NCBI GenBank assembly: GCA_016207605.1 | Contig: JACQPJ010000036.1 | Span: 1,486-65,485 of the forward strand | Origin: Elusimicrobiota bacterium | Lineage (GTDB): Bacteria > Elusimicrobiota > Elusimicrobia > UBA1565 > UBA9628 | Direction of reading: 5' to 3' | DNA length: 64,000 nucleotides | Shown: positions 12,501 through 31,666 of the stretch, in pieces | Layout: each line of letters begins with the position of its first letter | How positions within the stretch are numbered: position 1 is the first letter of the stretch | The notes under the pieces: generated by a model | Seen by the model: the letters and a program-made list of their open reading frames with translations, nothing else | Databases searched by the model: none | Told to the model about the DNA's origin: nothing | Made by a program: the position numbers and the translations under genes

Positions 12501-13640
12501 ATGCGCGGAGTCCTGCTCCCACAGCTCGAGCTGCTCGATCACGAGCTGGTTCCACCACTTGTAGTCGTTTCTGTTGTCGCTGAGCGCGGGCAGGCGGCCG
12601 GACTCCTCGACGCTGATGAACGTCACCTGGCTCAGGCACCTCTCGCGCTCGGCCGCGGACAGATGCCCGAACAGGTGATCCTTGACGGCCTGGCTCACCT
12701 TCATTTTCGTCACGTAGACGACATCCAAGCCGGGATCCCGCTCCACGGCATACATGAGCGCCCGGGCATCATAGGCCGGCTCGCCCTTGATGTTCTTGCG
12801 GGTCTGCTCGTCGAACGACAGGGACTGGAAATAGATGACCATCCGAGAGACCTTGTCCTTCGCCGCTTGGTCCCACGCCGAAAGGATCTCCCGCTGCTCC
12901 CAAAACTTCTCTATTTGGCTGCGAAGAATCTCCGGAAACTCCCGATATTTTCGCTGCATGTATTCAAGAAGCTTCCGCGGAAACGACCGCTCATCGGCCT
13001 TGGCCGCGCGGGCAAGCCGCGACGACTGGGCCGCGGGAGACGCGGAACGGGATGCTTCGTCTCCGAGAACCGGGTCTGCGGGAGCGCGGGTCTCGCCCTC
13101 GCCCCTTACCCCCTCCTCGCCAAACGGCCTTCTCGCGTCCTCAACGGCGTCGATCAGCGGCTGGGCATGGGCCTGCGGCTCATCCATCACCGGCTTCTCG
13201 TTGTCAACCGCACGACGCAGCTGTTCTGCCGCGCCCCGGACGAGGCGCCTCTCGCGACGTCCGCCATTGGGGGGCAATGGCTTGCCCGAACGTGCCGTGC
13301 GGGAAGCCTCATGGGCCGCAGGCCCGGCAGAGCCCGACGGCTGTGCGGCATGGAGGTAAGAATTCTGCATTTCTGCCGAGCGCGCAAAAAAATCCGTAAG
13401 CGTCCTCTCCATGGCTTCGAAATCCGTCCGAGATAGACTGTCGATGGGCACTGGAGCGGACACGGGAGGGCCGAACATGGTCCCTAAAAGCGGCATTTCA
13501 AGCCCGCCTCCCCCGAACCTGTAGACGCCGAGTTCCCCGCCCTCAACGGCAAAAGCGCGCGGACCCGCAAGCGTCAGGCCGAGGAGAACGAGCCAAGCCC
13601 AGACAGCGGGACTGCGCGTCAATGCCGCTCGACGTGCCAC
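9582..13640 (-). CDS. very large exported protein with a PGM1-like (pre-ATP-grasp plus ATP-grasp) peptide-ligase module and a second, weaker ATP-grasp-like C-terminal module
   Basis: 1352 aa with a GTG start. Signal-like N-terminus: RRAALTRSPAVWAWLVLLGLTLAGPRAFA. Module 1: VVYVTKMKVSQAVKDHLFGHL..TFISVEE, KLNNGVSGLGNVAVF, PSTQLRVQVNGKVLVHTTHDQ, GFMGVDNA..MYKVEVNPRAGGFTH. The C-terminal part (NRIVVHTSLGKKPQEF, AVVVESSAEP) parallels the C-terminus of the 13740..17081 protein. Confidence 0.7.
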   Translation of the reverse strand: MARRAALTRSPAVWAWLVLLGLTLAGPRAFAVEGGELGVYRFGGGGLEMPLLGTMFGPPVSAPVPIDSLSRTDFEAMERTLTDFFARSAEMQNSYLHAAQPSGSAGPAAHEASRTARSGKPLPPNGGRRERRLVRGAAEQLRRAVDNEKPVMDEPQAHAQPLIDAVEDARRPFGEEGVRGEGETRAPADPVLGDEASRSASPAAQSSRLARAAKADERSFPRKLLEYMQRKYREFPEILRSQIEKFWEQREILSAWDQAAKDKVSRMVIYFQSLSFDEQTRKNIKGEPAYDARALMYAVERDPGLDVVYVTKMKVSQAVKDHLFGHLSAAERERCLSQVTFISVEESGRLPALSDNRNDYKWWNQLVIEQLELWEQDSAHRPEWPGGLEEPVKAALSAEYEKRRATETPEARLQAKSKAAQSAQRERRATKETLAARLNAKFKELGDRLPEKDLSLADMVMLPENRAVREAIAKAAEAAQAVRAQARAAVEPGAADRGYPVKVVPFIAQKSEWGLIADLRDSFGLRTTLDGPLEVDILDNKSVQREIFREIISQHPELNMHMADGFEHIYDLTDLARKGAALWHRHPKLKRLMVKLNNGVSGLGNVAVFLQGGEASKSLTEQERYELILRTLQRMKKSPVGKAYFRQMKEFGAVVEEFLDWIPVSPAPSTQLRVQVNGKVLVHTTHDQDLDHGVFIGGRQPANDAYRADMMRGDRVIAQTLWRDYGLVGFMGVDNAARRGKTGNRWRMYKVEVNPRAGGFTHSARAVMVMTGARPDGEGRLVLEDGTPVYSHSTDHAIIAGLIGLDEQELEEFLRFMGPYQKLHLILGLGWKANMGATAHTVASRQAATEGLGRLIKRAWVRALDRTLRRSGYPPLKLRDRPAADKPKVAILGAPTPRNLALLAEACTLFPGDFLLVDRRDFVKKDQFVSAGLSYNSKTGEYVLATYKRKPQAVAHVFDVTRPTVDQLTVRTLALAGAVDENEVKVPDTLAFLNERHPLLRKNFAPAVKKRVQRKIRLAPFNRDQVQRTLSRWLTDHREDIGNRIVVHTSLGKKPQEFVAEQFKGARAGAEDQRREGDDEDQPQNEEDEPRIFTPDQGAQIADYVLELQRKLGKKGAVVVESSAEPLFMKFEAVRVPGKGVQFGFDKRLYKSDRDDEDYALQMKEQTEEDSNWDYWFKLYGLDDAATLYKLPGIKEKKTRYERLKEDVKALISAVFRSMPGQDYLVLRIGFWPGYTDEEDGESRPLRLRPVLLGVQGSEDPSETRQIDEMKGDLRAQREREVGALLRDGTPVLRARAKSMEARAMGRDSRQVRISRQRLQTLVERVGETDRPAALRQLLRLLGDAESAPRSP

Positions 13641-13739: not shown

Positions 13740-16700
13740 TCACGGCCTCGTCCAGACCGCGCGCGAGCGCGCCGCCGGGCGGCCTCCGGCGTCGGCGCGG
13801 GCGGACATCGCGGCCACGCGCTGGACGGCCAGAGCCTCCGCCTCTTCGCGCTGCGGCGCCAGGTCCGCGCCCCAGCGCGCGCGCCGCACCTCCGGGCTAC
13901 GATCCCGATGGCCGAGAAGGTCCAGGAGCACCCAGCGCGGGGCTGCGCCATTGCGCATGAGGGCGACCCGGACGCGAAGGAAGTCCGTGCGCACGTTGGC
14001 CGGCAGGGTGCGCTCCTCGTAGGCGCGCACGGCCGCCGCGGCCTGCTCGATCGCGGATTGGAGCGCGGCCTCGGCCTTCCGCCAATAGGACTCGTTCTCA
14101 GGATGCCCGAACCCTCCGGGGTGGGGGTCAAAGCCGCGCAGGCCGCTCGCATCGGTCGGCTCGAGCAAGGGGCGACGCCGCCCCTCGCTGGAGCGCGCCC
14201 GGTAGAGCATCCGCACGGGACTTATGTCCACCCGTCCCGAAGGATGAATGGCCGCGGGAACGTCGAACACGTAGTCCCAGACCTTGCCGCTCTCCACCAT
14301 GACGGCGCCGGAACTGCCGAGTTCGTCGAGAAGGTCCAGGACGTACTCCACGATCTCCGCCAGGCGTCCGCGCGCGCCCTGGAAAACCCGTTCCTGGCCG
14401 CCCTGGGACGTGCGGATGACGATGGAATCCTCGACCCGCTCCCCGGAGCGCGCGATCCAATCCGCCAAAGCCCCGCGGATGCCGCGGCGGGAAGTCCGCG
14501 TCATGTCCGCGCCGATCCCGGCGGCTCCCGGGCGCAGGAGATCCTGGACGGCATGCCGGGAACCCGGGATGAACAGAGTCGTGGGAACGTCAACCCCCGC
14601 GGCGGCGGCCAGGCCTCGCGCCAGCAGGCGGTCCTCGACGGTTCTTCCCGCCACGGGGATGGCCAAGCCCGAGCCGAGCTCCGCGCCGGCCTGATCGGCT
14701 GCCACGTAATAGGAAGCGCGCAGCGGCCGCCGATAAGAGGCCAGCACGAAAGCATCCGCGGCGGGGTCATAGCGCAGGCTGCGGCGCACGCCCAGGCGCT
14801 CGCCGCCCTTCGACAGCCAGCCGTTCTCCAGGACCAGGTGAACGCGGCCTCCCGATGCCTTGGCGAGAGCCAGGTTCTGGAAGGTCAGGGCCCCTCGCAC
14901 GACCTCGACATCACCCTCGAAGGGGTCGGCGTCGCGCGGCTCCTCGAGGCGGTCGCCGGCCGCCCGGAGGACCAAGCCCAGCTCGTACTCCCTCAGCCAT
15001 TCCAGGAAGCGGCGTTTGAGATCGGCCACCCCTTGAGCGTCTCCAGCGATGGCTACGTAGCTGATCTTGCCGGCCGTCTGGGGAGAGAAAATGGCCCGGG
15101 GGTTGTCCATGACGACGCCCGCCTTGGGCCCGGGGTCGAAAGCCAGGCCGGAGCGATGGAATGCCGCGAGGAACTCCGAGCGGCTCGTCAAGGCCAGGCC
15201 GGGGAATCCATCCTCGCCCGTGTAGGCCTCATAAGCGACAAGTCCCCCCCCATCAAGACGCTCCAGAAGGCCCTCCTCGTTGACCCGGGCTCCGGTGAGG
15301 TGCATGGCGAGTCGGAACGGATAGGTGGTGCCCGTCTTGCGCAGGTTGGTCTCGACATAGACGAGCTTCCAACCGCTTTCCAGCTCCTCGGCGGAGACTT
15401 CCATCCCGTAGCGATCCCGAGCAATCTGGGCGGGTATGGCCATGAAATCAACCCCAAGGTTGCCCAAGACGCCCTGCTCAGCGAGAGCGCGCCCAACGCG
15501 CAGGCCGGCCTCGTGCAGGGCACGGCGGTAGCGGACATCGGCCGGGTAGCGCGCTCCCACCCAAGCGCCGTTCTTGAGGATCTGATCATGAGTGGATTCC
15601 ACAAAAACCTGCCGCCCCGGGCCGATGCGTAATTGGATGCTCGGAGAGGGGTAATGCGCGGCTCCCTCGATGAACTGCTCCAGGACGCCCCCCATGCCCT
15701 GGAACGTCTGGAAATAGGCCCTATGCCTATGGCTGGCCGCCTCTCGAGCCAGCTTTGTCGCGATCGTGCCGGGCTCATTGGGCCCGCGGAAAACGAGGAA
15801 ACGATTCCCCTCCCCGGAAGCGCCGTCCTCCGCCTTCAGCACGATCTTCTTATCTCCCGTCGCCCTCCGGAGACGAACAATGGCGTCAGTCAAGGCGTCG
15901 AACGTCCTGCCGCCGGGAATGCCGTTGATGCCCCTGACGACGGTCAAACCCACGCGCTCGGCCAGCGCCCGCCCGATGCTCTTGTGGCCCAAAACCCAAT
16001 GCTCCGCGAGCGCGCCGTAGACCGGAAGACCCAGAAATTCGGCGACGGCCTCCACTGCGGACGTGACGTTGTAGGGATCCACGAAAGCGCTGAAGCCGCG
16101 CTCCCGAAATTCCGCGACCGCGCGGGCAACCGCTCCTAGAACATCCGCGCGGCGGAGCAGTTTTTGCGTGAAGCTCTTCCGCGGATCGGCGTCGTCCCGC
16201 TCGCCGAAGCTGTAGAAGCGGATCCGGTCGCGAGTTCCCGAGGGATCCGGCAAGCCGTGGAGGAGATGCCCCTGGAGATCCTCCTCCATGGGCAGCGACG
16301 TCACCATGATCGCGGCTTCATCGGGATCGGCCGCCGCCAGAGCCAATGCCGCGGACCGCCCCTCGGAATGCCGGGAATAAGGAGTCTTGGTCATGACCGC
16401 GTTGAGCTCCTGGCCAGGGAGGATCACGCGCACCCTGCGGGGGCTGGATTGCACCTCCGCCAAGGCGGCTTCCCGTTCCAAGGCTTTGCGATGCAGCGCG
16501 AGCGCGGCGGCATCCGCCTCCACGACGGAAGCCTCCGACGGCCCCCTGGAATCGCCGCGCCCGTCAATGACCGCGTCCGCGACGGCCGCTCCTGCCTCCG
16601 AAGGCAAGCGCGCGGCGCCGCCGAGCGCCCCCAGGGCCTGGGCGGCCTCCTCGGGCGCCGCGCCTGCGGGAACACGCACAGCTTCGCCGCCCTGAGCGCC

Positions 16701-17081
16701 TTCGCGCCCGCCCCGCAGGACGCGCAGCCGCGGAGGGGCGGGGACGGGCTCCGCTACGTGGCGCGACGCCGCGCCGTGAAGATGCGGTCCCGCAAGGACC
16801 CCGGCCATGGCTGCGGCCGCGGGCAGGCCCGCCGCGCTGACGGACAGCGGCGGCACCGCCAGAAGCTGAAGAACCGTCGGCAAATAGGTGAAAGTCACCG
16901 GTTCTGAAAACGCGTCCGCGGACGCCGCAAGACCGACGGGCTGCTCCACGATCCCCTCGGGAACGGAACGGCCCTCCAGCGCCCCGGGGGCGGCGTCCGC
17001 CTGCGGCCGTCCCGTCAGCAGCAGCGCGCCGGCCAGCAGGACTCTCAACCCTCTGAAGGCTGATCTGGTTCGGCGGCCCAA
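13740..17081 (-). CDS. very large exported protein, paralogous in architecture to 9582..13640: a PGM1-like ATP-grasp module plus a second ATP-grasp-like module
   Basis: 1113 aa with a TTG start. N-terminus: GRRTRSAFRGLRVLLAGALLLTGRPQADA. Module 1: AIMVTSLPMEEDLQGHLLHGL..RIRFYSFGE, KIVLKAEDGASGEGNRFLVF, PSPSIQLRIGPGRQVFVESTHDQ, LGVDFMAI..KLVYVETNLRKTGTTYPF. Module 2: VPTTLFIP, DSIVIRTSQGGQERVF, GAVMVESGKV, DFLRVRVAL..RWVLLDL. Confidence 0.7.
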   Translation of the reverse strand: MGRRTRSAFRGLRVLLAGALLLTGRPQADAAPGALEGRSVPEGIVEQPVGLAASADAFSEPVTFTYLPTVLQLLAVPPLSVSAAGLPAAAAMAGVLAGPHLHGAASRHVAEPVPAPPRLRVLRGGREGAQGGEAVRVPAGAAPEEAAQALGALGGAARLPSEAGAAVADAVIDGRGDSRGPSEASVVEADAAALALHRKALEREAALAEVQSSPRRVRVILPGQELNAVMTKTPYSRHSEGRSAALALAAADPDEAAIMVTSLPMEEDLQGHLLHGLPDPSGTRDRIRFYSFGERDDADPRKSFTQKLLRRADVLGAVARAVAEFRERGFSAFVDPYNVTSAVEAVAEFLGLPVYGALAEHWVLGHKSIGRALAERVGLTVVRGINGIPGGRTFDALTDAIVRLRRATGDKKIVLKAEDGASGEGNRFLVFRGPNEPGTIATKLAREAASHRHRAYFQTFQGMGGVLEQFIEGAAHYPSPSIQLRIGPGRQVFVESTHDQILKNGAWVGARYPADVRYRRALHEAGLRVGRALAEQGVLGNLGVDFMAIPAQIARDRYGMEVSAEELESGWKLVYVETNLRKTGTTYPFRLAMHLTGARVNEEGLLERLDGGGLVAYEAYTGEDGFPGLALTSRSEFLAAFHRSGLAFDPGPKAGVVMDNPRAIFSPQTAGKISYVAIAGDAQGVADLKRRFLEWLREYELGLVLRAAGDRLEEPRDADPFEGDVEVVRGALTFQNLALAKASGGRVHLVLENGWLSKGGERLGVRRSLRYDPAADAFVLASYRRPLRASYYVAADQAGAELGSGLAIPVAGRTVEDRLLARGLAAAAGVDVPTTLFIPGSRHAVQDLLRPGAAGIGADMTRTSRRGIRGALADWIARSGERVEDSIVIRTSQGGQERVFQGARGRLAEIVEYVLDLLDELGSSGAVMVESGKVWDYVFDVPAAIHPSGRVDISPVRMLYRARSSEGRRRPLLEPTDASGLRGFDPHPGGFGHPENESYWRKAEAALQSAIEQAAAAVRAYEERTLPANVRTDFLRVRVALMRNGAAPRWVLLDLLGHRDRSPEVRRARWGADLAPQREEAEALAVQRVAAMSARADAGGRPAARSRAVWTRP

Positions 17082-17096: not shown

Positions 17097-18629
17097 CTAC
17101 CTCGCCGCCATCCAGCCCAGAACGGCGTAGCCGGCGAGGGCAAATGCCGCCGCGGCCATGGCGTATGGAAGCTGGGTGCGGATGTGCTCCATGTGATCGG
17201 TATTGGCCGCCAGGGAGGAAAGCACGGAGGTGTCGGAAATGGGAGAGCAATGGTCGCCGAAGGCGCCACCGCTGAGCACCGCGCCGGCAGCCAGGAATGG
17301 ATTCATGCCCGCGCCCAGCGCCAGCGGGACGGCAATCGGCATCATGATGGCCCAGACGCCCCAAGACGTCCCCATGGCAAACGACAGAATCGCCGAAATA
17401 AGGAAAGTCAGAACCGGAATCCAGCCGGCGACGATGTAGGACCGGGTCGCCTCGACAATAAAGGCCGAAGCGCCCAAGCCCTCGGGGGCCGGCGCGCGCA
17501 TCAGGTCGCTGAGGGTCACCGCCAGGAGGATGATCACGGCGCCGATGATCGTGGACTTCCCCCCTTCGAAGGCAAAGTCCAGGAATTCCTTGGCCGTCAT
17601 CAAACCTTTGCGAACGTACAGGATCAACGCCGTCAAAAGCCCGAGCGCGAACGTCGTGGACATGCCGGTCAGGGAGTCCACGCCGGTCTTGGGCAAGCCG
17701 GGATGCCACCTCGTGATGAATCCATCCCAAACCCCCAAGGCCAGCAGGAAGAGGACGGAAACGGTCAACGGGATCATCATGTCGGAGACCCCGCCGCCTC
17801 GGACATGCGCGAGGGCCTTCTTTTCCGCCTCGGGGTCAAGCATGGGCGAGGACCCAGGCTTGTGCAGGAGCCCTTGGGTCTTGACCCGCCGCTCGGCCTC
17901 CTTCATCGGACCGAAGTCTGGAATCGCGCCGAGCGCAAGCAGGACGATGAACCCCAGGACGGCCCAGCAATAGAGATTGTAGGGCATGGTCCGCAGGAAG
18001 CCGACCAAGCCTTCGCCGGCGCGGATGGAAGGGATGTTTTCCTCCAGCAAGGTGATCATAAAGGCGATCCAGCCCGAGACCGGGATCAATGCCTTCGTCG
18101 GCGCCGCGGCCGAGTCGCAGCAGAAGGCAAGCTTTTCCCGAGAGATCCTCATGCGGTCGAAGACCGGCTTCATGGCCGTGCCGCTGACCAAGATGCCGAA
18201 ATAGGCGCTGGTGAAGATGGATATCCCGATCGCAAAACAAGTCAGCACGGCCTCCGCTTCGCTGCGGATGCGCCGAGCCGCGCGCTCGGCGAAGGCCCGG
18301 CTGCCCCCGGACTTCTCGATGACGGCGATGAACGCGCCCAACAGAACGACGCTAAGAAGGAGTTGGCCGCGGCTGGAGTCCTTGGCAAGACCCACTCCCT
18401 TGAGCGTCGCCGACGCCGCATGTCCCGCCAAAGTGGAAAGCGTCTGAGGCAGGAGATAGACCAAGGCATGAACGGCTCCATGGACGCGGTCGTCTATCAC
18501 GACGACGCTCAGCGCGACGCCGACCAGCAGGGACTCGATCACCCGCCGGGTTTTCACGGCCATGGCAACGGCCGCGGCCGCAGGCAGAAGCGAGAGCCAG
18601 CCATAATGCACGACGGCGGCGTCAGGCAT
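17097..18629 (-). CDS. NhaC-family Na+/H+ antiporter-type transporter (many members carry amino or organic acids)
   Basis: Polytopic membrane protein typical of the NhaC/C4 antiporter family. I prefer Met-8 (18629), which is preceded by GGAGG 6 nt upstream; the track start is 18650. Its stop lies only 15 nt before the start of gene 13740..17081. Confidence 0.75.
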   Translation of the reverse strand: MPDAAVVHYGWLSLLPAAAAVAMAVKTRRVIESLLVGVALSVVVIDDRVHGAVHALVYLLPQTLSTLAGHAASATLKGVGLAKDSSRGQLLLSVVLLGAFIAVIEKSGGSRAFAERAARRIRSEAEAVLTCFAIGISIFTSAYFGILVSGTAMKPVFDRMRISREKLAFCCDSAAAPTKALIPVSGWIAFMITLLEENIPSIRAGEGLVGFLRTMPYNLYCWAVLGFIVLLALGAIPDFGPMKEAERRVKTQGLLHKPGSSPMLDPEAEKKALAHVRGGGVSDMMIPLTVSVLFLLALGVWDGFITRWHPGLPKTGVDSLTGMSTTFALGLLTALILYVRKGLMTAKEFLDFAFEGGKSTIIGAVIILLAVTLSDLMRAPAPEGLGASAFIVEATRSYIVAGWIPVLTFLISAILSFAMGTSWGVWAIMMPIAVPLALGAGMNPFLAAGAVLSGGAFGDHCSPISDTSVLSSLAANTDHMEHIRTQLPYAMAAAAFALAGYAVLGWMAAR

Positions 18630-18709
18630 GAAGCCTCCTCGGAAATCCATTCACAAACAGCAGGTGCCGGATTTTATCAAGTTTCTGCGGTTGGCGACGC
18701 ATCGGCGTC

Positions 18710-21700
18710 TCATGAGCGCTGCCGGGAATCCAAAGGCACCCAAACGGGCGGCTCCGGCGGGCGTCCGTTGCCGGACGCTCGCGCTTGCCCGCGGCGAGCC
18801 TTCAATCCCATCCAGTAGGGCGCGACGTACCGCTCGAACGCGCCGATGATCAGCGCAACGGCGTAGACCCCGGCAAACCACGCCAGCACGGGCAGAAAAT
18901 TCTCCGGCGTAAGATGTCCCAGGAGCGTCTCCTGATCCTCCGGCGCCTGAAATGGCTTGCCGTAAAGAATCCCATAAAGGAGGAAGCTGACCAAGGGAAG
19001 CTGGAACATCAGCAGAGCGGAGTGAAAAATCGTGACGCTGGCGGAGGCGTCCCGGCCATTTTCGTCCGTGCTTTGCGTCCGCAGGGCCCGAAGCATGAGG
19101 TTGTTGAGGCCGAGGTCGGTGGCTGTGCCGTAGTAGAAGTACATGAAGCAGCCCGCGGCCGCGGCGAGCAGCCCCAGCACGGGATGGCCGAACGCGATGA
19201 GCCCGAGGGCGGCCGGCAGGAACCCCATCCAAGTCACGGCCTGAAATGCGAAGGAAAAGAACGGCTTATAGTAGTCGTCCCAGAGCCGTTCTTCAGGAAC
19301 GGCACCCGTGGGGCCCCGCCAGCCGACGATGGAGCTCGGCGCCAGCTTCTGACAGAATGCGCATAATTGATAAGCCCAAAATCGCCTGTCCCGCCAGCTC
19401 TGGCCGGGGGGCGGCAAAGGCTGAATCCCCAAACTCATGATCATGGCGCCAAGAAAACCGACGCCCCCAATGGCGCCCCCGAAGACGGAGCACCACAGCA
19501 TGGCGTGCCCGGGATGCAAGGAGGCCGCCGCCGCGTAGGCGATCGTCGGCACGAGCACGACGATGAGGGCGACCTGAACGTTTTTATAGGCAATGTTGGC
19601 AAAGACCCTGACTTTTAGAATCTTGCTTCTCCATGTGGCGACGGCGCCGTGCACCGCGGCGTTCAAGCGTCGTCCCAAAGGCTCCCGGTTGCCCATGTCG
19701 GGCTTGACGCGCAAATCCCGCGAGCGGACATACATCATCCACGTGGTGATGACGAACGCCGCGGCGATTCCCAGCGTGATCAGGGGCCCCAGAACGGCGT
19801 TCAGCTGAGGGTAGCCCTTCACGAGCAGGACGAGCGGAAGGCTGAGAAACCAGCGGCCAAAAACCTGCCCGATGGCCTGCGTGGCCTGGAGACGCACGTT
19901 GGGGGCGCTCTGGTCGGCCTCGTCCAGCGGCAGGTGGAACTGGATGGAGCTCTGCACCCAAAGCGCCTGGTTATAGGAAATCATGGCGCCCGGAGTGACG
20001 ATGAGCCCATCCAAAAAGGCCAAGACGAGGATCGGATTGTAGAGATATCCATACCAGGCGACGGGCGGCTCGATCAAGCCGGGCAGGCAGAAGGCCACGA
20101 CCGCCATCACGCTCCAGCAGGCGGCACGTCCCGCCGAACTCAGCCACAAAAGCGTCTGAATCCGCACCAGGGACAGAACAGGGCCGCTCAACAGCGCGCC
20201 GATGCTGCAGCCCAGAAAACTGTAGGCCCAATAGAAGTTCGTCTGCAGCGTCGGCCCGCCCAGAGCCAGCATGCCGTAAATCATCATCGCCTGAACGACG
20301 ACGAAGCCCAGGCTGCGCCACCACTCCATCTTTTCGAGGATCGGGTAGACCTCGCGGGCCAACTGCAGGCTCGCTTCATAGCGCAGCTTGAACGCGTCCA
20401 GATGGAAGATCGGAAGGAAGGGCCGCTCCTGCGTGACGACCGGCTCCTTGCCGCCCGGGGGTCTGATCGTCAAGGCAACGGGCCCCACCGCGTCCATCCG
20501 ACGCGACGCGGCCTCGACATCCGGGGCCTCCACGCGCAGGGTGGCGACGACGTCGGACGGCTGGACCGCGTCGCCGGCCCTCTTGAGCAGGCGCGCGGTC
20601 CCGTCTGCGACGAGACGCTCCAAGCCCGCGATGCTTTCCACGAACCCGGCGCTTGGGGCGACGAGGGACCATAGCCCGACCACGGAGTCCCGTTTGGACG
20701 CCTTGGCCGGGGCGACTCCGAAGAGAGAGAGTATCTCGTCGCTGACCGAAGGAACCTCGTCGCGCCGGCGGAAGCCGGGGTCCCGGCGGCCCTCGTCCAC
20801 GGCAAGACCGGACGGCTTGGGACCCAGGCCCGTGACCGAAATGTTCACCCGATACGTCCCGGACCAGATCCCGGCAGCCTCCAGCGCCGCCAGCCCGACG
20901 GCGACGAGCTTGTCAATGTGAGCTTTCTGCTCCAGGTTCTGCCGGGCGAACTCCTCCCGCTGCGCCTCGGTCTGTTCAGGAAAGGGCGGGAATTCCCTGG
21001 CCGCGGAGGACGGCATCTGCGACGGGGAAACCGCCGCGGAGCGGTCATCGCTCACGTCCCCGTGGGAGAGAGACGCCACCTGAAGCTTGCCCCCGATGGT
21101 CTGCACGCCGAGATAGAGATCCACCTGGGGCCCATCGTCGCGTCCCGACCTCACCAGATAGATTTCGCCCGCGGGCACCCCGCGGCCGCGAAGGGTCCGC
21201 CACGCCGCGACGGCCTCCAGGCCATCCCGCGCGTCTATGCCGGGCTCGGAGCCGCGGCGGGAATGCAGGGTGACCATCCCGTTGACCTCGTCATAGGCCC
21301 GCGCCACGTCCGCCTCACGAAGCAGGTGGTCGCGGAACGTCATGCTGAGTTCGCGCACCGGGGACAATGCCCTCAGCATCTGCAGCGGATCGGCGACGGC
21401 CTCAACGGCTCGGCTGGAGTTGCCGAGCACGCCGCGACCGCGGCTGAGTCCGCGAAGATGATCAACGACCGCTCCGCCAAGCTCCTGGAAGCCGGGCGCC
21501 GGCCACACCGCGACGGGGCCCGGCGCGCGCGCCGCGGCCCGGGAGACCGACTCAACGGCGTCGGCGACGCCCCGCGCTTCCCGCGCTTCGACCGGCGCCT
21601 CAATGAACTGTTCTGGGCCAAGCAAGTCCCGGTACCGCGCCCCTCGGACCGCGGTGTCCGCGAATTTGACCGTCAATCCGCGCTCGCGCGAAAGCGCCAA

Positions 21701-22408
21701 AATCTCCTGGACCTCATGCCGCCGCGCTCCCAGAACGATCAAAAGACTGCCCCGAAGAGGCTCCGACGTCCCCAGGGAATACGCCCCCGCCGGCATATCC
21801 CTGGGGAGGGACGCCTCCTGGACAGCCCCGGCGTCCGCGCCGACAAGGACGTCCCGCGATTCTAAAACCTGACCATCGAACGCGCCTCCCGTCCGACCCG
21901 GACTCGAACGAACTCCCGCATGGCCGCGGACGGCGCGAACGCCTTGCCGGACCGCGGCCGCCAACGCCGCGCCGGCCCGGCCGACGGCGCCGACCGCCAA
22001 CCCTGCCCAGGACGCTGAAGGTGCGGGCTTCGCGATCAGGCGGCGGGGAGGAGAAGAGTTTGACGCAGCAATCCGACTCCCCGCGTCCTGTCCCCACGCC
22101 GACGCGTGCGCCGCCAAGCCGGGCGCCGCCGGAGCGAGGGCGACCTCTTCGGGAGGGACGCTAGACGCGCCGGCCGACGCATCGCCTCCGCCGGGAAAGC
22201 CTGCCAGCCCGGACCACGGCTCCAACATTCCTCCCGCCGCCGCGAGCGGAGCAAGGGGCGGACGGACCTCGGTTGCCGCGATCGGCTGCATAGACGCCAT
22301 TGCGTGGTAGCAGGGCAGGCCCGGGGAAAATGCGACAAGGATGGCGGCCAGCATCGACGCGGTCAGACGCCTAAGGACCATCCAGGCCCGCCTCACGCAT
22401 TGTGTCAC
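18710..22408 (-). CDS. fusion protein: signal-like N-terminus, low-complexity linker, ATP-grasp-like (possibly degenerate) domain, and a C-terminal polytopic membrane domain of about 550 aa
   Basis: 1232 aa. The GTG start overlaps the upstream stop (GTGA). The N-terminus RRLTASMLAAILVAFSPGLPCYHAMA is paralogous to the 22405..25938 protein. The central layout (LLIVLGARRHE..GLTVKF.., ..NGMVTLHSRRGSEPG..) mirrors the pre-domain and central domain of the 664-aa ATP-grasp but lacks a clear KP..GGS..G motif. At least 10 hydrophobic helices follow from about aa 690 to the end. Confidence 0.6.
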   Translation of the reverse strand: MTQCVRRAWMVLRRLTASMLAAILVAFSPGLPCYHAMASMQPIAATEVRPPLAPLAAAGGMLEPWSGLAGFPGGGDASAGASSVPPEEVALAPAAPGLAAHASAWGQDAGSRIAASNSSPPRRLIAKPAPSASWAGLAVGAVGRAGAALAAAVRQGVRAVRGHAGVRSSPGRTGGAFDGQVLESRDVLVGADAGAVQEASLPRDMPAGAYSLGTSEPLRGSLLIVLGARRHEVQEILALSRERGLTVKFADTAVRGARYRDLLGPEQFIEAPVEAREARGVADAVESVSRAAARAPGPVAVWPAPGFQELGGAVVDHLRGLSRGRGVLGNSSRAVEAVADPLQMLRALSPVRELSMTFRDHLLREADVARAYDEVNGMVTLHSRRGSEPGIDARDGLEAVAAWRTLRGRGVPAGEIYLVRSGRDDGPQVDLYLGVQTIGGKLQVASLSHGDVSDDRSAAVSPSQMPSSAAREFPPFPEQTEAQREEFARQNLEQKAHIDKLVAVGLAALEAAGIWSGTYRVNISVTGLGPKPSGLAVDEGRRDPGFRRRDEVPSVSDEILSLFGVAPAKASKRDSVVGLWSLVAPSAGFVESIAGLERLVADGTARLLKRAGDAVQPSDVVATLRVEAPDVEAASRRMDAVGPVALTIRPPGGKEPVVTQERPFLPIFHLDAFKLRYEASLQLAREVYPILEKMEWWRSLGFVVVQAMMIYGMLALGGPTLQTNFYWAYSFLGCSIGALLSGPVLSLVRIQTLLWLSSAGRAACWSVMAVVAFCLPGLIEPPVAWYGYLYNPILVLAFLDGLIVTPGAMISYNQALWVQSSIQFHLPLDEADQSAPNVRLQATQAIGQVFGRWFLSLPLVLLVKGYPQLNAVLGPLITLGIAAAFVITTWMMYVRSRDLRVKPDMGNREPLGRRLNAAVHGAVATWRSKILKVRVFANIAYKNVQVALIVVLVPTIAYAAAASLHPGHAMLWCSVFGGAIGGVGFLGAMIMSLGIQPLPPPGQSWRDRRFWAYQLCAFCQKLAPSSIVGWRGPTGAVPEERLWDDYYKPFFSFAFQAVTWMGFLPAALGLIAFGHPVLGLLAAAAGCFMYFYYGTATDLGLNNLMLRALRTQSTDENGRDASASVTIFHSALLMFQLPLVSFLLYGILYGKPFQAPEDQETLLGHLTPENFLPVLAWFAGVYAVALIIGAFERYVAPYWMGLKARRGQARASGNGRPPEPPVWVPLDSRQRS

Positions 22409-25400
22409 GGGGCCTTAGGGGCCTTAAGGTCTTTTGCGGCCGCGAGCTCTTCGGGCGTGAAGAGCCAGCCCGGACCATAGATGACGACAACCGCCCCCAC
22501 GAGGACGCACCAGAGGGGAACCAAATTCATCGCGACCGGAACGGCCAGGGACAGGAAAACCGCCTGGGCCGCGCCCGTCACCAGCATCTCCACGGAACCC
22601 TGGATCGCGAACAGCCTTTCCCGGGCGTCCCTTCCCGCGGCGTCATATCCTTGCTGCTGAATCGTGGTCAGCGTCCAGGTGCTGAATCCCACCCGAGGTG
22701 CGATGAAATACATGTGGAACAGAAAGGACCCCAACGCGGCGAGAAGCACGCCGGGCCAAAAGGCATGGGAAACGACCGCCGCGCCAAGGGGAACCAGCAG
22801 CACGGGCAAGGTAGACCAGAACTGCACCTTAAAGAAAGGGCCATACTTGGCGTAACTTTCTTTTGCGTTTTTAGGCGGTTGCCAATCATGCAGGCTCGAG
22901 GGGGTCATGCGCCGCGCCCAGCCCAGCAGGACCGACAAAAAGCGCTCGATGGGGCGGCCGAGCCGCTTCGTGGCGGTCCAGCCGCGAAACGCGCTCAGCA
23001 TGGCTAAGGCGCCCAGCATGCCGACGCTCGTCAAAGCGACGGAGGAAAAGACGCCCCAGGCCTGGGATATCTTGTCGTCGCCGGACACGAGGTAGTGAAG
23101 GCCGAAATACAAAAGCACGACGCTGGGCACGCCCTCGTAGATGGTGCGGTCGCTGGAATTCATCCCGAAGCGCTTGTAAAAAAAAGCTTTTTCGAGCGCC
23201 AAGACGCCAGCCGCCCAGAATTCGGCAAGCACTGAGCCGATGCGGACCGGTTCCGGGTTGCCCATATCCTCGTTTTTAGGCATCGCACGAAGGTAGAAAG
23301 GTAGGCCGATCACGCCCAGCGCGAGACAGGCCGCGGCCATCGCCAAGGCTAAGGCGACGGCCGCCGACCCGGAAGCGCCCGTCGCCAGCAGAACGGCTCC
23401 AAAGGACAGGGCAAGAGGGCTGACGAGACGCAGTCCCGCGCTCCAAGTCTGACGGAACACGCCCCAATCCTTGAAATCGTCTTTATCCACGGGGAAATGG
23501 TGGCGCCGGGCAAGGGCGCCGATCCCGCCCTCGTCGCTGTCTAGGAGACACGCGAACGCGGTGACGACTCCCTGCAGGAACGTGAGGGCGAAATAGGCCG
23601 TGTCAAACGCCGGGCCGCCAAGCAGGAGAGCGGCGGCGGGAACGCCCAACGTCCAGATCAGCGTCGTCGCCGCCATCCCGCCGGGGATGACGGCCCTCAG
23701 GCGCAGGCGTGCGAGTATGGGCGCGGCGATCAGGACCACCAAGGCCACGGGCAGGATATAGCCCCACGTGGCGGTGGCCGCGGTCCAAGCGCCGCCCTTC
23801 ACCAAGCCGAGAGGAATCAAAAAAGAGGACCGGACGATCAACTGCGCGAGGCCGGCGATCTGGCCGCGCATGTAGCCTTGCAGGATATGTTTGCCCCGCA
23901 GAGCCGCCGTCTCGCGGACTTCCTGGTGCGCTTTTTCCACATCCACCCGCGCGCCCGCGCGGTCGTCGCCCGGCCGGCGGACCACCTCTCCCTGCGCGGT
24001 TCGAACGTCCACGAAGATACTCGACATAAACTCCCTGGCGCGCTGATCAACCTGCGCGGGACTGTCTCCGTCCCTGGCGCGGATGGCGATGCGGGCGATG
24101 ACGTCGGCGGGGCCGAGAGAATCCCCCGGTCGTTTGAGCGGCAGAAACCGGACGGTCGGATCAGCCGAAAACGGCGCCACAATGCCGACCAGCGTGCCGG
24201 CAACCTCCGCGACCAGCTCTCGGGATTGAGCCTCCTGCGGGCGGCCCAGCCCCGGCGCCACGGCCGCGCCCAAAAGGGAGAAAAGCTGCGCCTCGACCAG
24301 CGCGGCGCCTTCGGCGGCGTGCAGGACGGAACCCCAAACGCCGCGCGAGACGTCCTCGATCCGGGGGCCCTCCGAAGTCCATGCCAGAACCGCGCTCACC
24401 GCGCCGGATCGGACGCCGAGCTTTTTCGCCGCCCGAAGGAGCGCGCCAACGAACTCATCGTCGCCGGGCCGCGAGGCAAGGACCGCGCCGTTTCGCGTCA
24501 GGCGGTCTGAAACGGCCGCTCGAACCGCTCGCAATTCCAGTCCCTCTTCGCCAAGGACCTCCTCAACGATGAGGTCCACCTGGCGCCGGGGGCCTTCCCA
24601 CTCGCGGTCCATCATGACGCCCTCGGGGTCAACGCGGGCGACCTGCCGCCATGCCTCGGCCGCCTCCTGTTCGCTGGAGGCGCGACGCTCAATGCCCTTC
24701 ACGCGCCGCGACCAAACGCGCGCCGCGACCATGGGTCCGCCGCCCATGTCGCGGAACGCCTTGACGGCGGCCTCAGGACTCGGCAGGTCGCTGCGCACCG
24801 TCGTCGCCTGCTCCGGGTCGCGCTTGAGGCTCTCACGCATCCCCGCGCGCTGCAAGCGGCGCACAGTCTCCAGCGAGTCGCCGAGCACGCGGGGACCGCC
24901 GCCTTGGTTGAGACGGTCTACGATGCGCCCCGCAAGCTCCTCGAAACCCTCCGCCGGCTGTACGGCGGCGAAAGGACGGCGTGCATGGCGACGGGCGATC
25001 TCCTCAAGAACGGCATCCGCCTGTTCCGGGGTCAAGCTGTCCGCGGACGCCGGCATGGCAGGCAGGACGCGTACTTTCCCATCGAGATCGCCGAGTCGGG
25101 ACCATTCGCTCCCATCCTCCAGCACATGAACCTTAACGCCATGCGCTTGGGCGACCCTCGCCCAAGTCCTGGCATACTCAGACCCGTTGGACCCGACCAA
25201 GAGGACGGCCCTGCCGCGGAGGGACGCGGAATCGCGCTTCGCCGGCCGCGCGGCGGCAGGAACGGCCGCGTCCTGCGCGGCCGGCGCGAGCCCCAAGCTG
25301 ACGCGCCCATCGTTGGCGCGCCCGGGCTCGCGCTCCTCCTCCTCCCCGAGGACGTCAGGGCTGTCGGCGCCTGAACGTTTCGCATCTCCCGGCGCCGCCG

Positions 25401-25938
25401 CCTGTCCGTCAAAACGAAGTCTGCCGGGATCGCGGAACCGGGCGCCGCGTTTGTCCTGGGCGTTAGAGACCCCGGAGAGCTCCTGGACTTGGGCCAGCCC
25501 GCCCGTGATGGATGGCTGCTCGGCCCGAGATCGAGGAGACGCGGTCCAATGCGCCGCTTGCGGCGCGCGGGCATGAGCGAGAAAGGCCGGGCGCGCAACG
25601 GTATGAACGGCAGCGCGCCGCAGCAAGCCGGCCGCATCCGCCGTGCCGTTGGCGGACAACTCGAAGACGCCGAAGGAATAGGCGCCGAAAAGCCCCGAAA
25701 AGCCGGCTTCCCCGGCGAAGGCGTCCGCCGCTGCCGGCGGAGTCAAGGCGACGTCGAGCCGGGGAAGAGATAAAACGACCGGGGCGGACGCCTCCCCCTG
25801 GGCCATGGCCTGGTAGCAGGGCAGGCCCGGGGACAGGACGACCAGGGACGCGGCGACAAGCGCGGCCGTCAACCGCTTAAAAACGCCCCGCTGGAAATTG
25901 ACCTGGATCATTTGATTGTAGTCAATTTTATTCAGCAA
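22405..25938 (-). CDS. paralog of 18710..22408: signal-like N-terminus, linker, ATP-grasp-like domain and C-terminal polytopic membrane domain
   Basis: 1177 aa. N-terminus: FKRLTAALVAASLVVLSPGLPCYQAMA. Central region: AVLLVGSNGSEY..GVKVHVLED, GGGPMVAARVWSRRVKGIERRASSEQEA. Multiple TM helices follow from about aa 700. The start is uncertain: TTG at 25938 or ATG at about 25911, and the palindromic motif overlaps the latter. Confidence 0.6.
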   Translation of the reverse strand: MLNKIDYNQMIQVNFQRGVFKRLTAALVAASLVVLSPGLPCYQAMAQGEASAPVVLSLPRLDVALTPPAAADAFAGEAGFSGLFGAYSFGVFELSANGTADAAGLLRRAAVHTVARPAFLAHARAPQAAHWTASPRSRAEQPSITGGLAQVQELSGVSNAQDKRGARFRDPGRLRFDGQAAAPGDAKRSGADSPDVLGEEEEREPGRANDGRVSLGLAPAAQDAAVPAAARPAKRDSASLRGRAVLLVGSNGSEYARTWARVAQAHGVKVHVLEDGSEWSRLGDLDGKVRVLPAMPASADSLTPEQADAVLEEIARRHARRPFAAVQPAEGFEELAGRIVDRLNQGGGPRVLGDSLETVRRLQRAGMRESLKRDPEQATTVRSDLPSPEAAVKAFRDMGGGPMVAARVWSRRVKGIERRASSEQEAAEAWRQVARVDPEGVMMDREWEGPRRQVDLIVEEVLGEEGLELRAVRAAVSDRLTRNGAVLASRPGDDEFVGALLRAAKKLGVRSGAVSAVLAWTSEGPRIEDVSRGVWGSVLHAAEGAALVEAQLFSLLGAAVAPGLGRPQEAQSRELVAEVAGTLVGIVAPFSADPTVRFLPLKRPGDSLGPADVIARIAIRARDGDSPAQVDQRAREFMSSIFVDVRTAQGEVVRRPGDDRAGARVDVEKAHQEVRETAALRGKHILQGYMRGQIAGLAQLIVRSSFLIPLGLVKGGAWTAATATWGYILPVALVVLIAAPILARLRLRAVIPGGMAATTLIWTLGVPAAALLLGGPAFDTAYFALTFLQGVVTAFACLLDSDEGGIGALARRHHFPVDKDDFKDWGVFRQTWSAGLRLVSPLALSFGAVLLATGASGSAAVALALAMAAACLALGVIGLPFYLRAMPKNEDMGNPEPVRIGSVLAEFWAAGVLALEKAFFYKRFGMNSSDRTIYEGVPSVVLLYFGLHYLVSGDDKISQAWGVFSSVALTSVGMLGALAMLSAFRGWTATKRLGRPIERFLSVLLGWARRMTPSSLHDWQPPKNAKESYAKYGPFFKVQFWSTLPVLLVPLGAAVVSHAFWPGVLLAALGSFLFHMYFIAPRVGFSTWTLTTIQQQGYDAAGRDARERLFAIQGSVEMLVTGAAQAVFLSLAVPVAMNLVPLWCVLVGAVVVIYGPGWLFTPEELAAAKDLKAPKAP

Positions 25939-26027: not shown

Positions 26028-27482
26028 TCAGGCCTGGAGGTTTTCTTTACGGCAGAAGTCCAGGACTTCTTCGTTGGAACGGACTGGAAGCTCGCGATAG
26101 GCTCGGTAGAGTTTCTCCATCGTCGAAATCCAAAGAGTTCGCCGATCGCCTCGTGAGGAGTCGCGGCGGGAGACGGCGCGCAAGGCCTTGATATAGAGAT
26201 CCCGGGAGCGCGTCGTCACGATGATCCCCGAGAATCCCGCCGCCAGCAGATGGGCGTCGGTCATGAGCCGGGCGGCCCGGCCGTTGCCGTCCGTGAAGGG
26301 ATGGACCTCTGAGACCACGAGCCCCAGAAAGACGGCACGGTGAAAAGGTGAGGCGATCTTCCCGCTCAGCTCCCAGCCAGCGAGCAGCGTCGGGCCGACT
26401 TTCGCGGGATCGACGAAACGCGTGCCGCCGGCATGATTGGGCCGCGTCTTGAACTCCCCAGGGCGCAACGCCGGATTGCCGCCCGCCAGGGAAAGATGCA
26501 GGCGCTTCAAGTAGCTCTCGAACGCCGGATGAGAGGCGTTGACGGCCGGAGGAGTCATTGTCGTCAGCAGGGAGAGGTACGTCTGATGCGTCGCCGCGAG
26601 GGTGCGCTGATCCGGCGCGGGACCGTGATCTTCCCCGCGGTACACGATTCCGACGGCGTCCTCCGGCAAGAACTCGGTTCCCTCGATGTAGTTGGAAAAA
26701 TACGCCGCGATGAAGCAGAAGCGGTCGAATTGAACGGCGTCGTTGGACGACCACGCCCTTCCCTCGATCCTTTCGGAGGTGAGTTCGGACATGAACCCCG
26801 CGAGGTCGGCGAAAAGCTCCACCCGGCTCGGGTCGCCATCATTCTTGTTGAAGAGGGCGCGCAGCCTCGGAGAGCGCACCTTGGCGGGATCGCGTGAGCC
26901 GATCGCAGCGATGACCTCGAGGAGCCCCTCGACGTCGCGTTGATTGCGCTTCGCGACGGCCCGCAGAGCCTTCAAGTCGACTCGCGGGCCCGCCGCAAGG
27001 AGAAATTCTTCAAGTTCTTCGGGCGTAAGCGCGGCGCTCGCGTACTCACCGCGGCGTTTCTCCGTGACTTCTAAGAGAGCGTTCTCGAGCGTTGAGATTT
27101 GGCCGGGACTTCCCAGCATGGAAATCTGGCTCGTCTCGGGCTTCGGCATGCCGGCAAGGAGGCGTATCCGCTTGGGGCCTAAAGTGATGGTCCGGTAGCG
27201 CTTCATCGGCCAGGAGACGAACCACTCCGGAGAGTAGGGGTTGAAATGCAGCGCGGTGCGGTGCGAAACATGGCCCTTTGAGTCCGTCAAGCGCCGGACG
27301 ACGTTGGGCCAGTGATCGGCGAGCGCGGCAGCGGGGTCCTCGCCGCCGCGCACGTATATTCCGTGCCCGAGGGCAACCAGTTCGCCGCACGCCGCGGCGC
27401 GCTCAATGCGCTTGCGCTGTGCGGCGTCGGCGGACGTGGTGACGACTTTTGCCCAGAGAATAGGGCCTGGAATGCGGGGCAC
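26028..27482 (-). CDS. Fic/DOC family protein (AMPylase-type)
   Basis: 484 aa with a GTG start. It has the canonical Fic motif HPFTDGNGRAARL. The gene and its flanks are visibly lower in GC than their neighbours. Confidence 0.85.
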   Translation of the reverse strand: MPRIPGPILWAKVVTTSADAAQRKRIERAAACGELVALGHGIYVRGGEDPAAALADHWPNVVRRLTDSKGHVSHRTALHFNPYSPEWFVSWPMKRYRTITLGPKRIRLLAGMPKPETSQISMLGSPGQISTLENALLEVTEKRRGEYASAALTPEELEEFLLAAGPRVDLKALRAVAKRNQRDVEGLLEVIAAIGSRDPAKVRSPRLRALFNKNDGDPSRVELFADLAGFMSELTSERIEGRAWSSNDAVQFDRFCFIAAYFSNYIEGTEFLPEDAVGIVYRGEDHGPAPDQRTLAATHQTYLSLLTTMTPPAVNASHPAFESYLKRLHLSLAGGNPALRPGEFKTRPNHAGGTRFVDPAKVGPTLLAGWELSGKIASPFHRAVFLGLVVSEVHPFTDGNGRAARLMTDAHLLAAGFSGIIVTTRSRDLYIKALRAVSRRDSSRGDRRTLWISTMEKLYRAYRELPVRSNEEVLDFCRKENLQA

Positions 27483-31566: not shown

Positions 31567-31666
31567 CGCGCCTTTAGTATAGCGCAAGAAGCGCGAGCCC
31601 GCCAGGAAGCCGCGGCGCGCGATCTCCCGTGTAATCGGAGCCGCGGTATGGCTATAATCCTCAGAT

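Follow-up and report, generated by a model that had tools for sequence, protein, structure and literature searches.

The window analysed here, a 64,000-nucleotide (nt) stretch of DNA from an Elusimicrobiota bacterium (GenBank assembly GCA_016207605.1, contig JACQPJ010000036.1), carries two adjacent minus-strand genes, g1177 and g1232, a tandem pair of fast-evolving paralogs that share a rare fusion architecture. The anatomy of the encoded proteins is near certain: in both, a signal-peptide-like N-terminus is followed by a disordered Ala/Pro-rich tether, an ATP-grasp domain of the L-amino-acid-ligase (LAL) type and a membrane domain of twelve transmembrane (TM) helices with the fold of the major facilitator superfamily (MFS). 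Judged by the residues it has lost, the ligase domain is almost certainly a pseudoenzyme. The interpretation towards which we lean, with a little better than even confidence, is that this dead domain acts as a cytoplasmic, non-catalytic module on an exporter and descends from a ligase-exporter fusion; its proposed part in docking and export is much less certain than the anatomy. All positions are those of the window, and the two open reading frames (ORFs), whose coordinates agree with an earlier sequence-only reading of the same DNA, lie as follows.

22405..25938, minus strand: g1177, the upstream paralog, an ORF of 1177 codons from TTG; likely start ATG 25911, giving 1168 amino acids (aa) and corresponding to P0002, the database (NCBI) model
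18710..22408, minus strand: g1232, the downstream paralog, an ORF of 1232 codons from GTG; likely start ATG 22381

The two had been taken for paralogs, and BLASTP bears this out over their full length, with 25% identity across ~1190 columns (E 2e-30) and collinearity from end to end. They had also been described as translationally coupled by a GTGA overlap, which is present at the level of the ORFs and stands only if GTG 22408 is the start of g1232. An in-frame ATG at 22381, 27 nt downstream of the GTG and preceded at a distance of 9 nt by GAGG, is no less likely a start and would leave a 23-nt gap instead of an overlap; the linkage of the two genes is tight under either start. In the NCBI model of g1232 (P0001, HY552_04225, 1010 aa) the protein begins after the first 222 codons of the ORF and so lacks the signal-like N-terminus bearing the SPGLPCYHAMA motif and the linker.

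The soluble halves of both proteins hold the following segments.

23953..25233, minus strand: degenerate LAL-type ATP-grasp fold domain of g1177 (AlphaFold, Foldseek, alignment)
24694-24735, minus strand: g1177, PMVAARVWSRRVKG in place of V(L/I)KPxxGGGSxGV (alignment)
24379-24402, minus strand: g1177, AVSAVLAW in place of the HVE strand (alignment)
24331-24366, minus strand: g1177, PRIEDVSRGVWG in place of PRxLEVNARMGG (alignment)
20369..21772, minus strand: degenerate ATP-grasp domain of g1232 (alignment)
21239-21277, minus strand: g1232, MVTLHSRRGSEPG in place of V(L/I)KPxxGGGSxGV (alignment)
20834-20857, minus strand: g1232, TYRVNISV, within the degenerate ATP-grasp domain
20774-20806, minus strand: g1232, LAVDEGRRDPG, within the degenerate ATP-grasp domain

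The assignment of the soluble half to the ATP-grasp fold, first proposed from sequence alone and here narrowed to the LAL type, is carried by profile matches, Foldseek and the full-length AlphaFold model, in which residues 240-660 of g1177 reach a pLDDT of 85-95. The top Foldseek matches of the g1177 soluble domain were RizA (4wd3, E 2.4e-11, TM-score 0.73) and BL00235 (3vot, TM-score 0.74); biotin carboxylases and PurK/PurT came next, the E values of these top matches being about 1e-10. When 1.84 billion representative proteins were searched exhaustively with HMMER and a two-paralog profile, the soluble proteins P0007 (E 8e-20) and P0009 (E 1e-17) were recovered, together with P0011 and P0021, down to 2e-7; Pfam ATP-grasp_4 and LAL_C2 were found in the first three of P0007, P0009, P0011 and P0021 by scan and are on record for the last. 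Searches of Pfam, NCBIfam and PDB sequences returned no usable match for the whole of g1177 or g1232 or for either half.

When g1177, g1232 and P0003, the three proteins sharing the N-terminal SPGLPCY motif, were aligned with 13 canonical relatives, they proved collinear all the way from LLVVG, a first strand of Rossmann-like type, to the beta domain at the C-terminus. A Rossmann-like pre-domain had been suggested earlier; the LLVVG strand is aligned across the family, and the RizA/BL00235 fold match includes the Rossmann-like N-domain. Collinearity had also been claimed with a 664-aa ATP-grasp protein encoded in the same window; direct similarity to it is insignificant (no BLASTP match; hhalign E 0.098), and homology is established through intermediates and structure alone. 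At 18-20% identity, the 664-aa protein is also more remote than the P0004 group described below (22-32%). Both g1177 and g1232 align through the LAL_C2 region, where beta strands were modelled at residues 569-656 and the Pfam LAL_C2 model has no match; most of this region is absent from P0003.

The catalytic set was retained in 13/13 canonical relatives in the alignment, and its fate in the three SPGLPCY proteins is given below.

Lys of V(L/I)KP: A in g1177, H in g1232, R in P0003
Gly-rich loop GGGSQG: SRRVKG in g1177, GSEP in g1232, TGEGRL in P0003
Glu of HVE (first Mg-binding): V in g1177, N in g1232, Q in P0003
Asn of E-x-N: S in g1177, G in g1232, K in P0003
Arg after E-x-N: lost in g1177, kept in g1232, lost in P0003

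The nucleotide-binding stretch had been recognised as replaced, and PMVAARVWSRRVKG and MVTLHSRRGSEPG do stand at V(L/I)KPxxGGGSxGV; the loss is wider than first noted. Since the replacements differ among g1177, g1232 and P0003, the old active site looks abandoned rather than re-tooled. Of the earlier suggestions that the domain is degenerate or uses different chemistry, the former is favoured, a different chemistry being unlikely with the metal and phosphate ligands all lost.

The membrane halves occupy the remainder of both proteins.

22408..23940, minus strand: 12-TM MFS-fold domain of g1177, residues 667-1177; 22/39 family-conserved positions kept
18713..20362, minus strand: 12-TM MFS-fold domain of g1232; 18/39 family-conserved positions kept, VDxDxGG loop lost

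At least 10 hydrophobic helices had been foreseen, and the C-terminal ~500 aa holds 12 TM helices in an MFS-type bundle. The membrane half of g1177, modelled alone from 19 family sequences, was predicted at a pLDDT of 91.5 and a pTM of 0.90 as twelve long helices arranged 6+6 with a central loop between. Foldseek matched this model exclusively to MFS transporters (147 matches at E <= 1e-3, TM-score 0.55-0.67, best E 6e-6), including MdfA (4zp0), G6PT1, ferroportin, STP6, PepT, NTT1, MFSD2A and SPNS2; TM-scores for MdfA, G6PT, ferroportin and PepT were 0.6-0.67. The MFS sequence models of Pfam and NCBIfam had no match in the 15 clade members scanned (the 2 of the window and 13 others, including those of Toxoplasma and Pseudomonas), the best score being LacY_symp at E 0.012 in the Toxoplasma homolog; the UniRef name of the Pseudomonas member P0008 is 'MFS transporter'. 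The clade has motifs of its own: YxxGQ before TM1; SPxAGxLxERxxxRxxL after TM2, resembling motif A; DGxxV in TM4, followed by VDxDxGG..L..Q..F.xDD..RNxfN; and further along IRWR, GKxG and GFRNLMQ....ASGRxFG. At the motif-A site g1177 has APILARLRLRAV and g1232 has GPVLSLVRIQTL, the acidic residue being lost in both. At 39 positions, at least 80% of the other clade members agree; 33 of these are kept in P0003, 22 in g1177 and 18 in g1232. The window pair is thus divergent in both halves. It has insertions in common with P0003, at PSS..W..P and at D..GRDA, which together with DMGNxEP indicate a constrained subfamily.

The same MFS clade has eukaryotic members with all clade motifs, among them those of the apicomplexans Toxoplasma gondii (P0015, TGME49_310210), Babesia microti (P0025) and Lankesteria (P0014) and of the alga-related Rhodelphis (P0022). 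Their annotation goes no further than 'putative transmembrane protein' or 'conserved Plasmodium membrane protein', and no Pfam family covers them; a literature search found no mention of TGME49_310210.

Ahead of the ligase domain, both proteins begin with the same two elements.

25801..25911, minus strand: signal-peptide-like N-terminus of g1177, MIQVNFQRGVFKR / LTAALVAASLVVL / SPGLPCYQAMA; motif at 25801-25833
22295..22381, minus strand: signal-peptide-like N-terminus of g1232, MVLRR / LTASMLAAILVAF / SPGLPCYHAMA; motif at 22295-22327
25234..25800, minus strand: disordered linker of g1177, Ala/Gly/Arg/Pro-rich, residues 47-235; RLRFDGQ motif at 25402-25422
21773..22294, minus strand: disordered linker of g1232, residues 39-212; GAFDGQ motif at 21869-21886

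At the N-termini of g1177 and g1232, a basic segment leads into a hydrophobic one of 13 residues and on to SPGLPCY[QH]AMA, within a wider consensus RLTA..AA.LV..SPGLPCY[QH]AMA, in agreement with the shared segments reported earlier. Beyond the two paralogs, the SPGLPCY motif does not recur in a six-frame translation of the window, and a metagenome scan with the exact pattern [VAL][LF]SPGLPCY found no relative, so the exact motif is very rare. Its presence in P0003, whose N-terminus ends in …LSPGLPCYQALA, and in relaxed form in other relatives means that it is not a quirk of recent duplication. The relaxed form (A/S)PGxx(P/A/S)[YF]xAxA occurs in P0004, P0006, P0018, P0023, P0064 and P0067, and a weaker variant, SGLAPFSAVA, in P0009; the corresponding c-region reads APDFASYAAA in P0069 and APWPAxAQ in P0072, P0073 and P0075. 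A basic n-region and an h-region of 12-14 aa were read in all eleven complete N-termini of fused members (11/11: g1177, g1232, P0003, P0004, P0006, P0018, P0064, P0067, P0069, P0072, P0075), and the c-region (A/S)PGxx(P/A/S)[YF]xAxA in 8/11. Inspection and alignment of 16 N-termini found the features of a Sec-type signal, namely a basic n-region, an h-region and a c-region with a helix breaker and AxA, and the h-region is as hydrophobic as in the window's other secreted proteins. Read in this way, the SPGLPCY motif forms the c-region in a signal-peptide-like sequence of Sec type, without an independent function as a motif.

The low-complexity linkers noted earlier are likewise present, with 23-24% Ala, 11-15% Gly and 8-10% Pro in the two paralogs and a length of ~180 aa; residues 39-234 of g1177 have a pLDDT <50 in the full-length model. 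Fused members in general have 100-200 disordered residues after the signal-like start; most also have an (F/L)DG motif just ahead of the enzyme part. The same module of helix and linker is found on the soluble ligases of the window operon and of the P0003 locus. Three other readings of these segments were rejected: a lipoprotein signal, the Cys being preceded by Pro and not conserved; a Tat signal, RR being present in many members and KK or KR in others, and the genome being GC-rich; and a hidden second TM segment in the linker, whose hydrophobic stretches are Ala/Pro-rich and unconserved between the paralogs.

The side of the membrane on which the ligase domain lies was judged from loop charges and from homologs. 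With the modelled helices, the loops on the ligase side hold 32 Lys+Arg against 2 on the other side in g1177 and 31 against 2 in g1232, and the sum over 19 family members is 475 against 46. In stand-alone clade members, of which P0008 of Pseudomonas is one, the N-terminal tail is 55 residues long and lacks a signal sequence, and their ligase partner has no signal peptide. Because of the positive-inside rule and the homology to these stand-alone members, the ligase domain is placed on the cytoplasmic face. In P0017 (Elusimicrobiota, HVE14824.1), two extra hydrophobic helices and a repeated LAL_C2-like piece lie between the ligase and MFS domains, at residues of about 640-700, and, the number of extra helices being even, the side of the ligase is unchanged.

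The profile search found only 40 proteins at E <= 1e-3, which fall into five groups. The first is P0003 (1035 aa), with the same architecture and the same N-terminal motif; the second, P0004 (1082 aa) and P0017, has the same architecture with a soluble part that matches Pfam ATP-grasp_4 and LAL_C2. The third comprises soluble proteins of 440-670 aa with ATP-grasp_4 and LAL_C2 (P0007, P0009, P0011, P0021 and others), and the fourth, membrane proteins of 460-560 aa that match the C-terminal half alone (P0005, P0008, P0010, P0012, P0016 and others). In the fifth, P0006 (L001:1085-5272) and P0018, proteins of ~1390 aa, a signal-like start and the same MFS clade are joined to a different domain of ~750 aa. 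A GNAT fold for that domain was considered and rejected, Acetyltransf_8 being its sole match, at a non-significant E of 0.094.

A word-indexed search with P0004 added its orthologs P0061-P0063, similar over their full length, and P0064-P0067, P0069 and P0070, in which nearly the same ligase sits on a different, polytopic membrane domain without a Pfam match. A further set, P0072-P0075 (e.g. M0D55_03955), from Elusimicrobiota, has Pfam LAL_C2 and MFS_1 on record. An intact ligase on the same MFS clade is found in P0004, L007 and P0017 and, judged by full-length similarity to P0004, in P0061-P0063, and canonical catalytic motifs are kept in P0004, L007, P0064, P0067 and P0069; P0072, P0073 and P0075 keep the Lys and E-x-N with Asp for the first Glu and a variant loop, RGENS, and their predicted ligase activity is less certain. 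All fused proteins with an organism name (the window pair, P0017, P0069, P0075 and L001) come from Elusimicrobia or Elusimicrobiota, and the ligase-transporter fusion looks typical of this phylum. A scan of a genome collection found one Elusimicrobia locus, and megablast of the region against plasmids gave no match. The word-indexed homolog search returned g1232 itself alone for g1232, and nothing for the membrane-domain alignment, probably with hydrophobic and Ala-rich words filling the candidate list.

Split versions of the fusion occur in Pseudomonas-type gene clusters. In Pseudomonas tructae (L006:5004-17385, CP035952), a 485-aa LAL gene overlaps the start of P0008 by 4 nt, in the order PS-decarboxylase-like (PSDC), HalD, LAL, P0008 and PALP, then radical SAM, ATP-grasp, 2OG oxygenase and MFS_1, the whole preceded by a glutamine-synthetase-like gene. 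The last four of these genes mirror the pboF-I block of the phaseolotoxin-linked Pbo cluster of P. syringae (PMC8473136). An independent contig, L011, has the same PSDC-HalD-LAL-membrane-PALP order with the same 4-nt overlap of ligase and membrane gene, and its membrane protein is 63% identical to P0008; clusters of this type probably represent a small-peptide antimetabolite pathway, so far uncharacterised. The ligase domain of P0004 is 52% identical to the LAL type of the Pseudomonas-type cluster.

Fusion occurs in at least four lineages of the MFS clade and adjacency in two Pseudomonas-type clusters. Because the ligase and transporter are fused in some relatives and adjacent genes in others, they are likely to be functionally coupled, by Rosetta-stone logic. 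The membrane partner of a ligase in biosynthetic clusters is normally an exporter, BacD/BacE being the textbook pair. Among the soluble members, P0007 adjoins an ABC exporter. At the P0003 locus, a 1231-aa ATP-grasp protein (PGM1_C and LAL_C2; L005:1414-5109) is encoded together with a further LAL-like protein, peptidases of the M20/M28 and C26 families and a PTR2 peptide transporter, and this similar gene set supports a conserved system rather than an accident of the present genome.

In the window, g1177 and g1232 lie in a same-strand run of Fic, g1177, g1232, an NhaC-type carrier, two large ATP-grasp proteins, the 664-aa ATP-grasp protein, an M14 peptidase and an aminotransferase.

26028..27482, minus strand: Fic-domain protein, 484 aa, without a signal peptide, directly upstream of g1177
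17097..18650, minus strand: carrier of the NhaC / Na_H_antiporter family, 517 aa, operon neighbour
13740..17081, minus strand: 1113-aa ATP-grasp ligase, BesA/PGM1-like, with signal-like N-terminus and linker; catalytic K, G-loop and ExNxR intact
9582..13640, minus strand: 1352-aa paralog of the 1113-aa ligase, with signal-like N-terminus and linker; catalytic K, G-loop and ExNxR intact
7467..9461, minus strand: 664-aa LAL-type ATP-grasp protein (ATP-grasp_4, LAL_C2), with signal-like N-terminus, linker and GFDG motif; catalytic motifs intact
5653..7458, minus strand: M14 zinc carboxypeptidase with a signal peptide, operon neighbour
3596-4861, minus strand: aminotransferase, further down the same-strand run

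The three other ATP-grasp proteins (664, 1113 and 1352 aa) keep the catalytic Lys, the Gly-rich loop and E/D-x-N-x-R and are predicted to be active. All three, like the M14 peptidase, start with a signal-peptide-like sequence. In the ligases 170-200 Ala/Pro/Gly-rich residues come next, and in the 664-aa and 1113-aa proteins an (F/L/I)DG motif precedes the enzyme part; the M14 peptidase carries just the signal peptide, without a linker. Within the window, the combination of signal-like start and linker is confined to this operon. Export-type signals on ATP-dependent ligases are odd.

Two features elsewhere in the window are recorded for completeness. The first is a diadenylate cyclase of the CdaA/DisA_N type (30685-32106), followed by a phosphoesterase of the DHH/DHHA1 type (29648-30688); they look like a pair for the synthesis and degradation of c-di-AMP and seem unrelated to the fusion genes. 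The segment 46001-52000 has an AT skew of about 0.40 at 71-74% GC, far above the remaining window.

A path from enzyme to module can be proposed from these relatives. In the ancestral protein, an ATP-grasp ligase would have made a small peptide-like molecule in the cytoplasm, for the MFS domain fused to it to carry across the inner membrane. In the SPGLPCY branch (g1177, g1232 and P0003), the ligase domain would have kept its fold and become a cytoplasmic non-catalytic module at the mouth of the transporter. There it may serve as a binding site for the product, a peptide or an amino acid, or as a docking site for one of the operon's three intact ligases; in either role it would couple what those ligases make to export by the MFS domains. 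Supply of substrate or trimming of the product may fall to the NhaC-type carrier and the secreted M14 carboxypeptidase, and the N-terminal helix and tether, common to the operon's soluble ligases, would most likely bring the components to the same membrane. Synthesis-coupled export, as first suggested for g1177 and g1232, cannot be performed by these proteins themselves because their ligase domain is catalytically dead; the idea fits the intact relatives P0004, L007 and P0061-P0067.

Several points weigh against this interpretation. Docking to the other ligases is something we purely infer, and the transport and binding roles of g1177 and g1232 are putative; transport by the two proteins may be altered or lost, given the many clade-conserved residues missing from them. 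The other fused relatives examined are stand-alone genes, so that the operon partnership is not general. The most direct difficulty is the N-terminus: a Sec-type signal-like start predicts export of the ligase domain, contradicting the charge bias, and a single helix with its N-terminus inside and its C-terminus outside would put the ligase domain outside the cytoplasm, no second membrane-crossing segment being conserved in the linker when the paralogs are compared.

The direction of transport cannot be read from sequence, and g1177 and g1232 might instead be importers or transceptor-like sensors of an external peptide or amino acid, released for example by the M14 peptidase, with the dead domain as a cytoplasmic ligand-binding or signalling module. 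The secreted carboxypeptidase and the NhaC/ArcD-like carrier in the operon, like the PTR2 peptide transporter and the peptidases at the P0003 locus, are consistent with such a role, and the lost MFS-clade residues would fit a shift from transport to sensing. However, the split homologs stand in biosynthetic clusters beside a ligase, where exporters are the norm, and the proteins contain no signalling output domain, which leaves import or sensing an unlikely alternative.

The conflict between signal-like start and charge bias can be read in two ways. The helix may be a membrane-targeting or tethering element that leaves the downstream part unexported; or the signal peptide works as such, and the linker, the ATP-grasp domain, the three operon ligases and the carboxypeptidase would all lie outside the cytoplasm as a peptide-ligation or envelope-modifying system, with the MFS domains feeding substrates, or even nucleotide, into the periplasm. 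For the latter speak the n/h/c signal peptide on every complete fused member and on all soluble operon ligases, an h-region as hydrophobic as in bona fide secreted proteins of the window, the clearly secreted M14 peptidase next door and the Ala/Pro-rich spacer behind the N-terminal anchor, which is typical of periplasm-spanning proteins such as TonB. By the Lys+Arg bias of 32 against 2, however, the ligase side is placed in the cytoplasm; a signal is lacking in stand-alone MFS-clade members and in their ligase partner; and the two extra helices of P0017 preserve the same parity. ATP-grasp enzymes moreover need ATP, which to our knowledge is not available in the periplasm. An extracytoplasmic location is given a low probability, and tethering of a cytoplasmic domain is retained as the preferred reading.

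It is very doubtful that the domain is still an enzyme, with different chemistry or another mode of nucleotide binding in the same fold: although the fold is retained at a pLDDT of 85-95 and the domain is conserved among both paralogs and P0003, the Lys, Gly loop, first Glu and Asn are replaced differently in the three proteins (A/H/R, V/N/Q and S/G/K at the single residues), which points to relaxed constraint and to no new conserved catalytic set. Equally little probability is given to both genes being decaying, functionless relics of a duplicated ligase-exporter, as their lost conserved residues in both domains and mere 25% identity might suggest, since both ORFs are intact over >3.5 kb, both folded domains are confidently modelled (g1177 at full length, the membrane half also alone), and the N-terminal motif and the insertions PSS..W..P, D..GRDA and DMGNxEP are common to both paralogs and P0003.

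If the preferred reading of a dead module on an exporter is true, the family offers a peptide-forming enzyme wired to its exporter, which bears on the channelling of toxic or labile small peptides and on the engineering of dipeptide production. The window would represent the next evolutionary step, a pseudoenzyme domain beside three intact operon ligases, and a clean natural case for a dead ATP-grasp domain on a transporter. The orphan MFS clade takes in still uncharacterised proteins of Toxoplasma, Babesia and gregarines, for which the bacterial association with ligases could guide work on the parasite proteins, and the signal-like start set against a cytoplasmic charge signature is a puzzle in membrane-protein biogenesis. 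A bolder conjecture, to which we attach a low probability, is that Elusimicrobiota have a hitherto unrecognised class of membrane-integrated 'ligase-porters', amide-bond-forming enzymes fused to MFS domains, in which every pathway enzyme carries the common helix-tether-FDG module. The class would take in the ATP-grasp ligases and, in P0006 and P0018, the different ~750-aa domain, with one MFS clade an orphan shared with Apicomplexa; the module would assemble a membrane peptide assembly line with the dead domains as docking hubs, or would deliver the ligases outside for periplasmic ATP-dependent ligation.

Compared with known systems, the soluble half is closest to the L-amino acid ligases (RizA 4wd3, BL00235 3vot, BacD/YwfE), which have the same three-part fold including the Rossmann-like N-domain and are linked to it in sequence through intermediates; unlike them, g1177 and g1232 lack the ATP- and Mg-binding residues and a Pfam match and add a signal-like segment, a disordered linker of ~180 aa and the fusion to a membrane domain. 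The membrane half shares with MFS transporters (MdfA 4zp0, G6PT, ferroportin, PepT) the 12 TM helices in 6+6, the termini inside and the long central loop, whereas the clade of the window is unseen by MFS models and has its own motifs, partly lost in g1177 and g1232. The closest known ligase/exporter precedent is BacD and BacE of bacilysin, encoded by separate genes. Gene pairs of ligase and MFS exporter (bacilysin BacD/BacE, Pbo and the P. tructae cluster) link the same two functions, which in the window are combined in one polypeptide with a dead ligase half; BacE and PboE/PboI are ordinary MFS_1 proteins outside this clade, whereas the P. tructae and L011 partners belong to it. MprF, an aminoacyl-phosphatidylglycerol synthase (GNAT-like, tRNA-dependent) fused to a flippase, is alike in concept alone, as a cytoplasmic enzyme that forms amide or ester bonds, fused to a polytopic domain that carries its product across the membrane; its folds and chemistry are unrelated, and no similarity was detected.

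The LAL-transporter fusions of Elusimicrobiota (P0004, P0061-P0063, P0064-P0067, P0069, P0072-P0075) have the same overall architecture, with an Ala/Pro-rich linker usually ending in FDG; several of them carry other membrane domains (MFS_1 or a third type), and those examined are single genes, not tandem pairs in a ligase operon. The sequence-only reading knew of no described fusion of a ligase-like and a transporter-like domain. A literature search covering periplasmic or secreted ATP-grasp ligases, ATP-grasp/MFS fusions and Elusimicrobia ATP-grasp proteins found no description of a single-polypeptide fusion, and to that extent the architecture is undescribed; unannotated examples (LAL_C2 and MFS_1) do exist in public databases, labelled 'biotin carboxylase' or 'hypothetical protein'. 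The logic of coupling synthesis to export is itself already known from the systems above, and what the window pair adds to it is the tandem duplication, the dead ligase domain and the operon of intact ligases in which the two genes stand.

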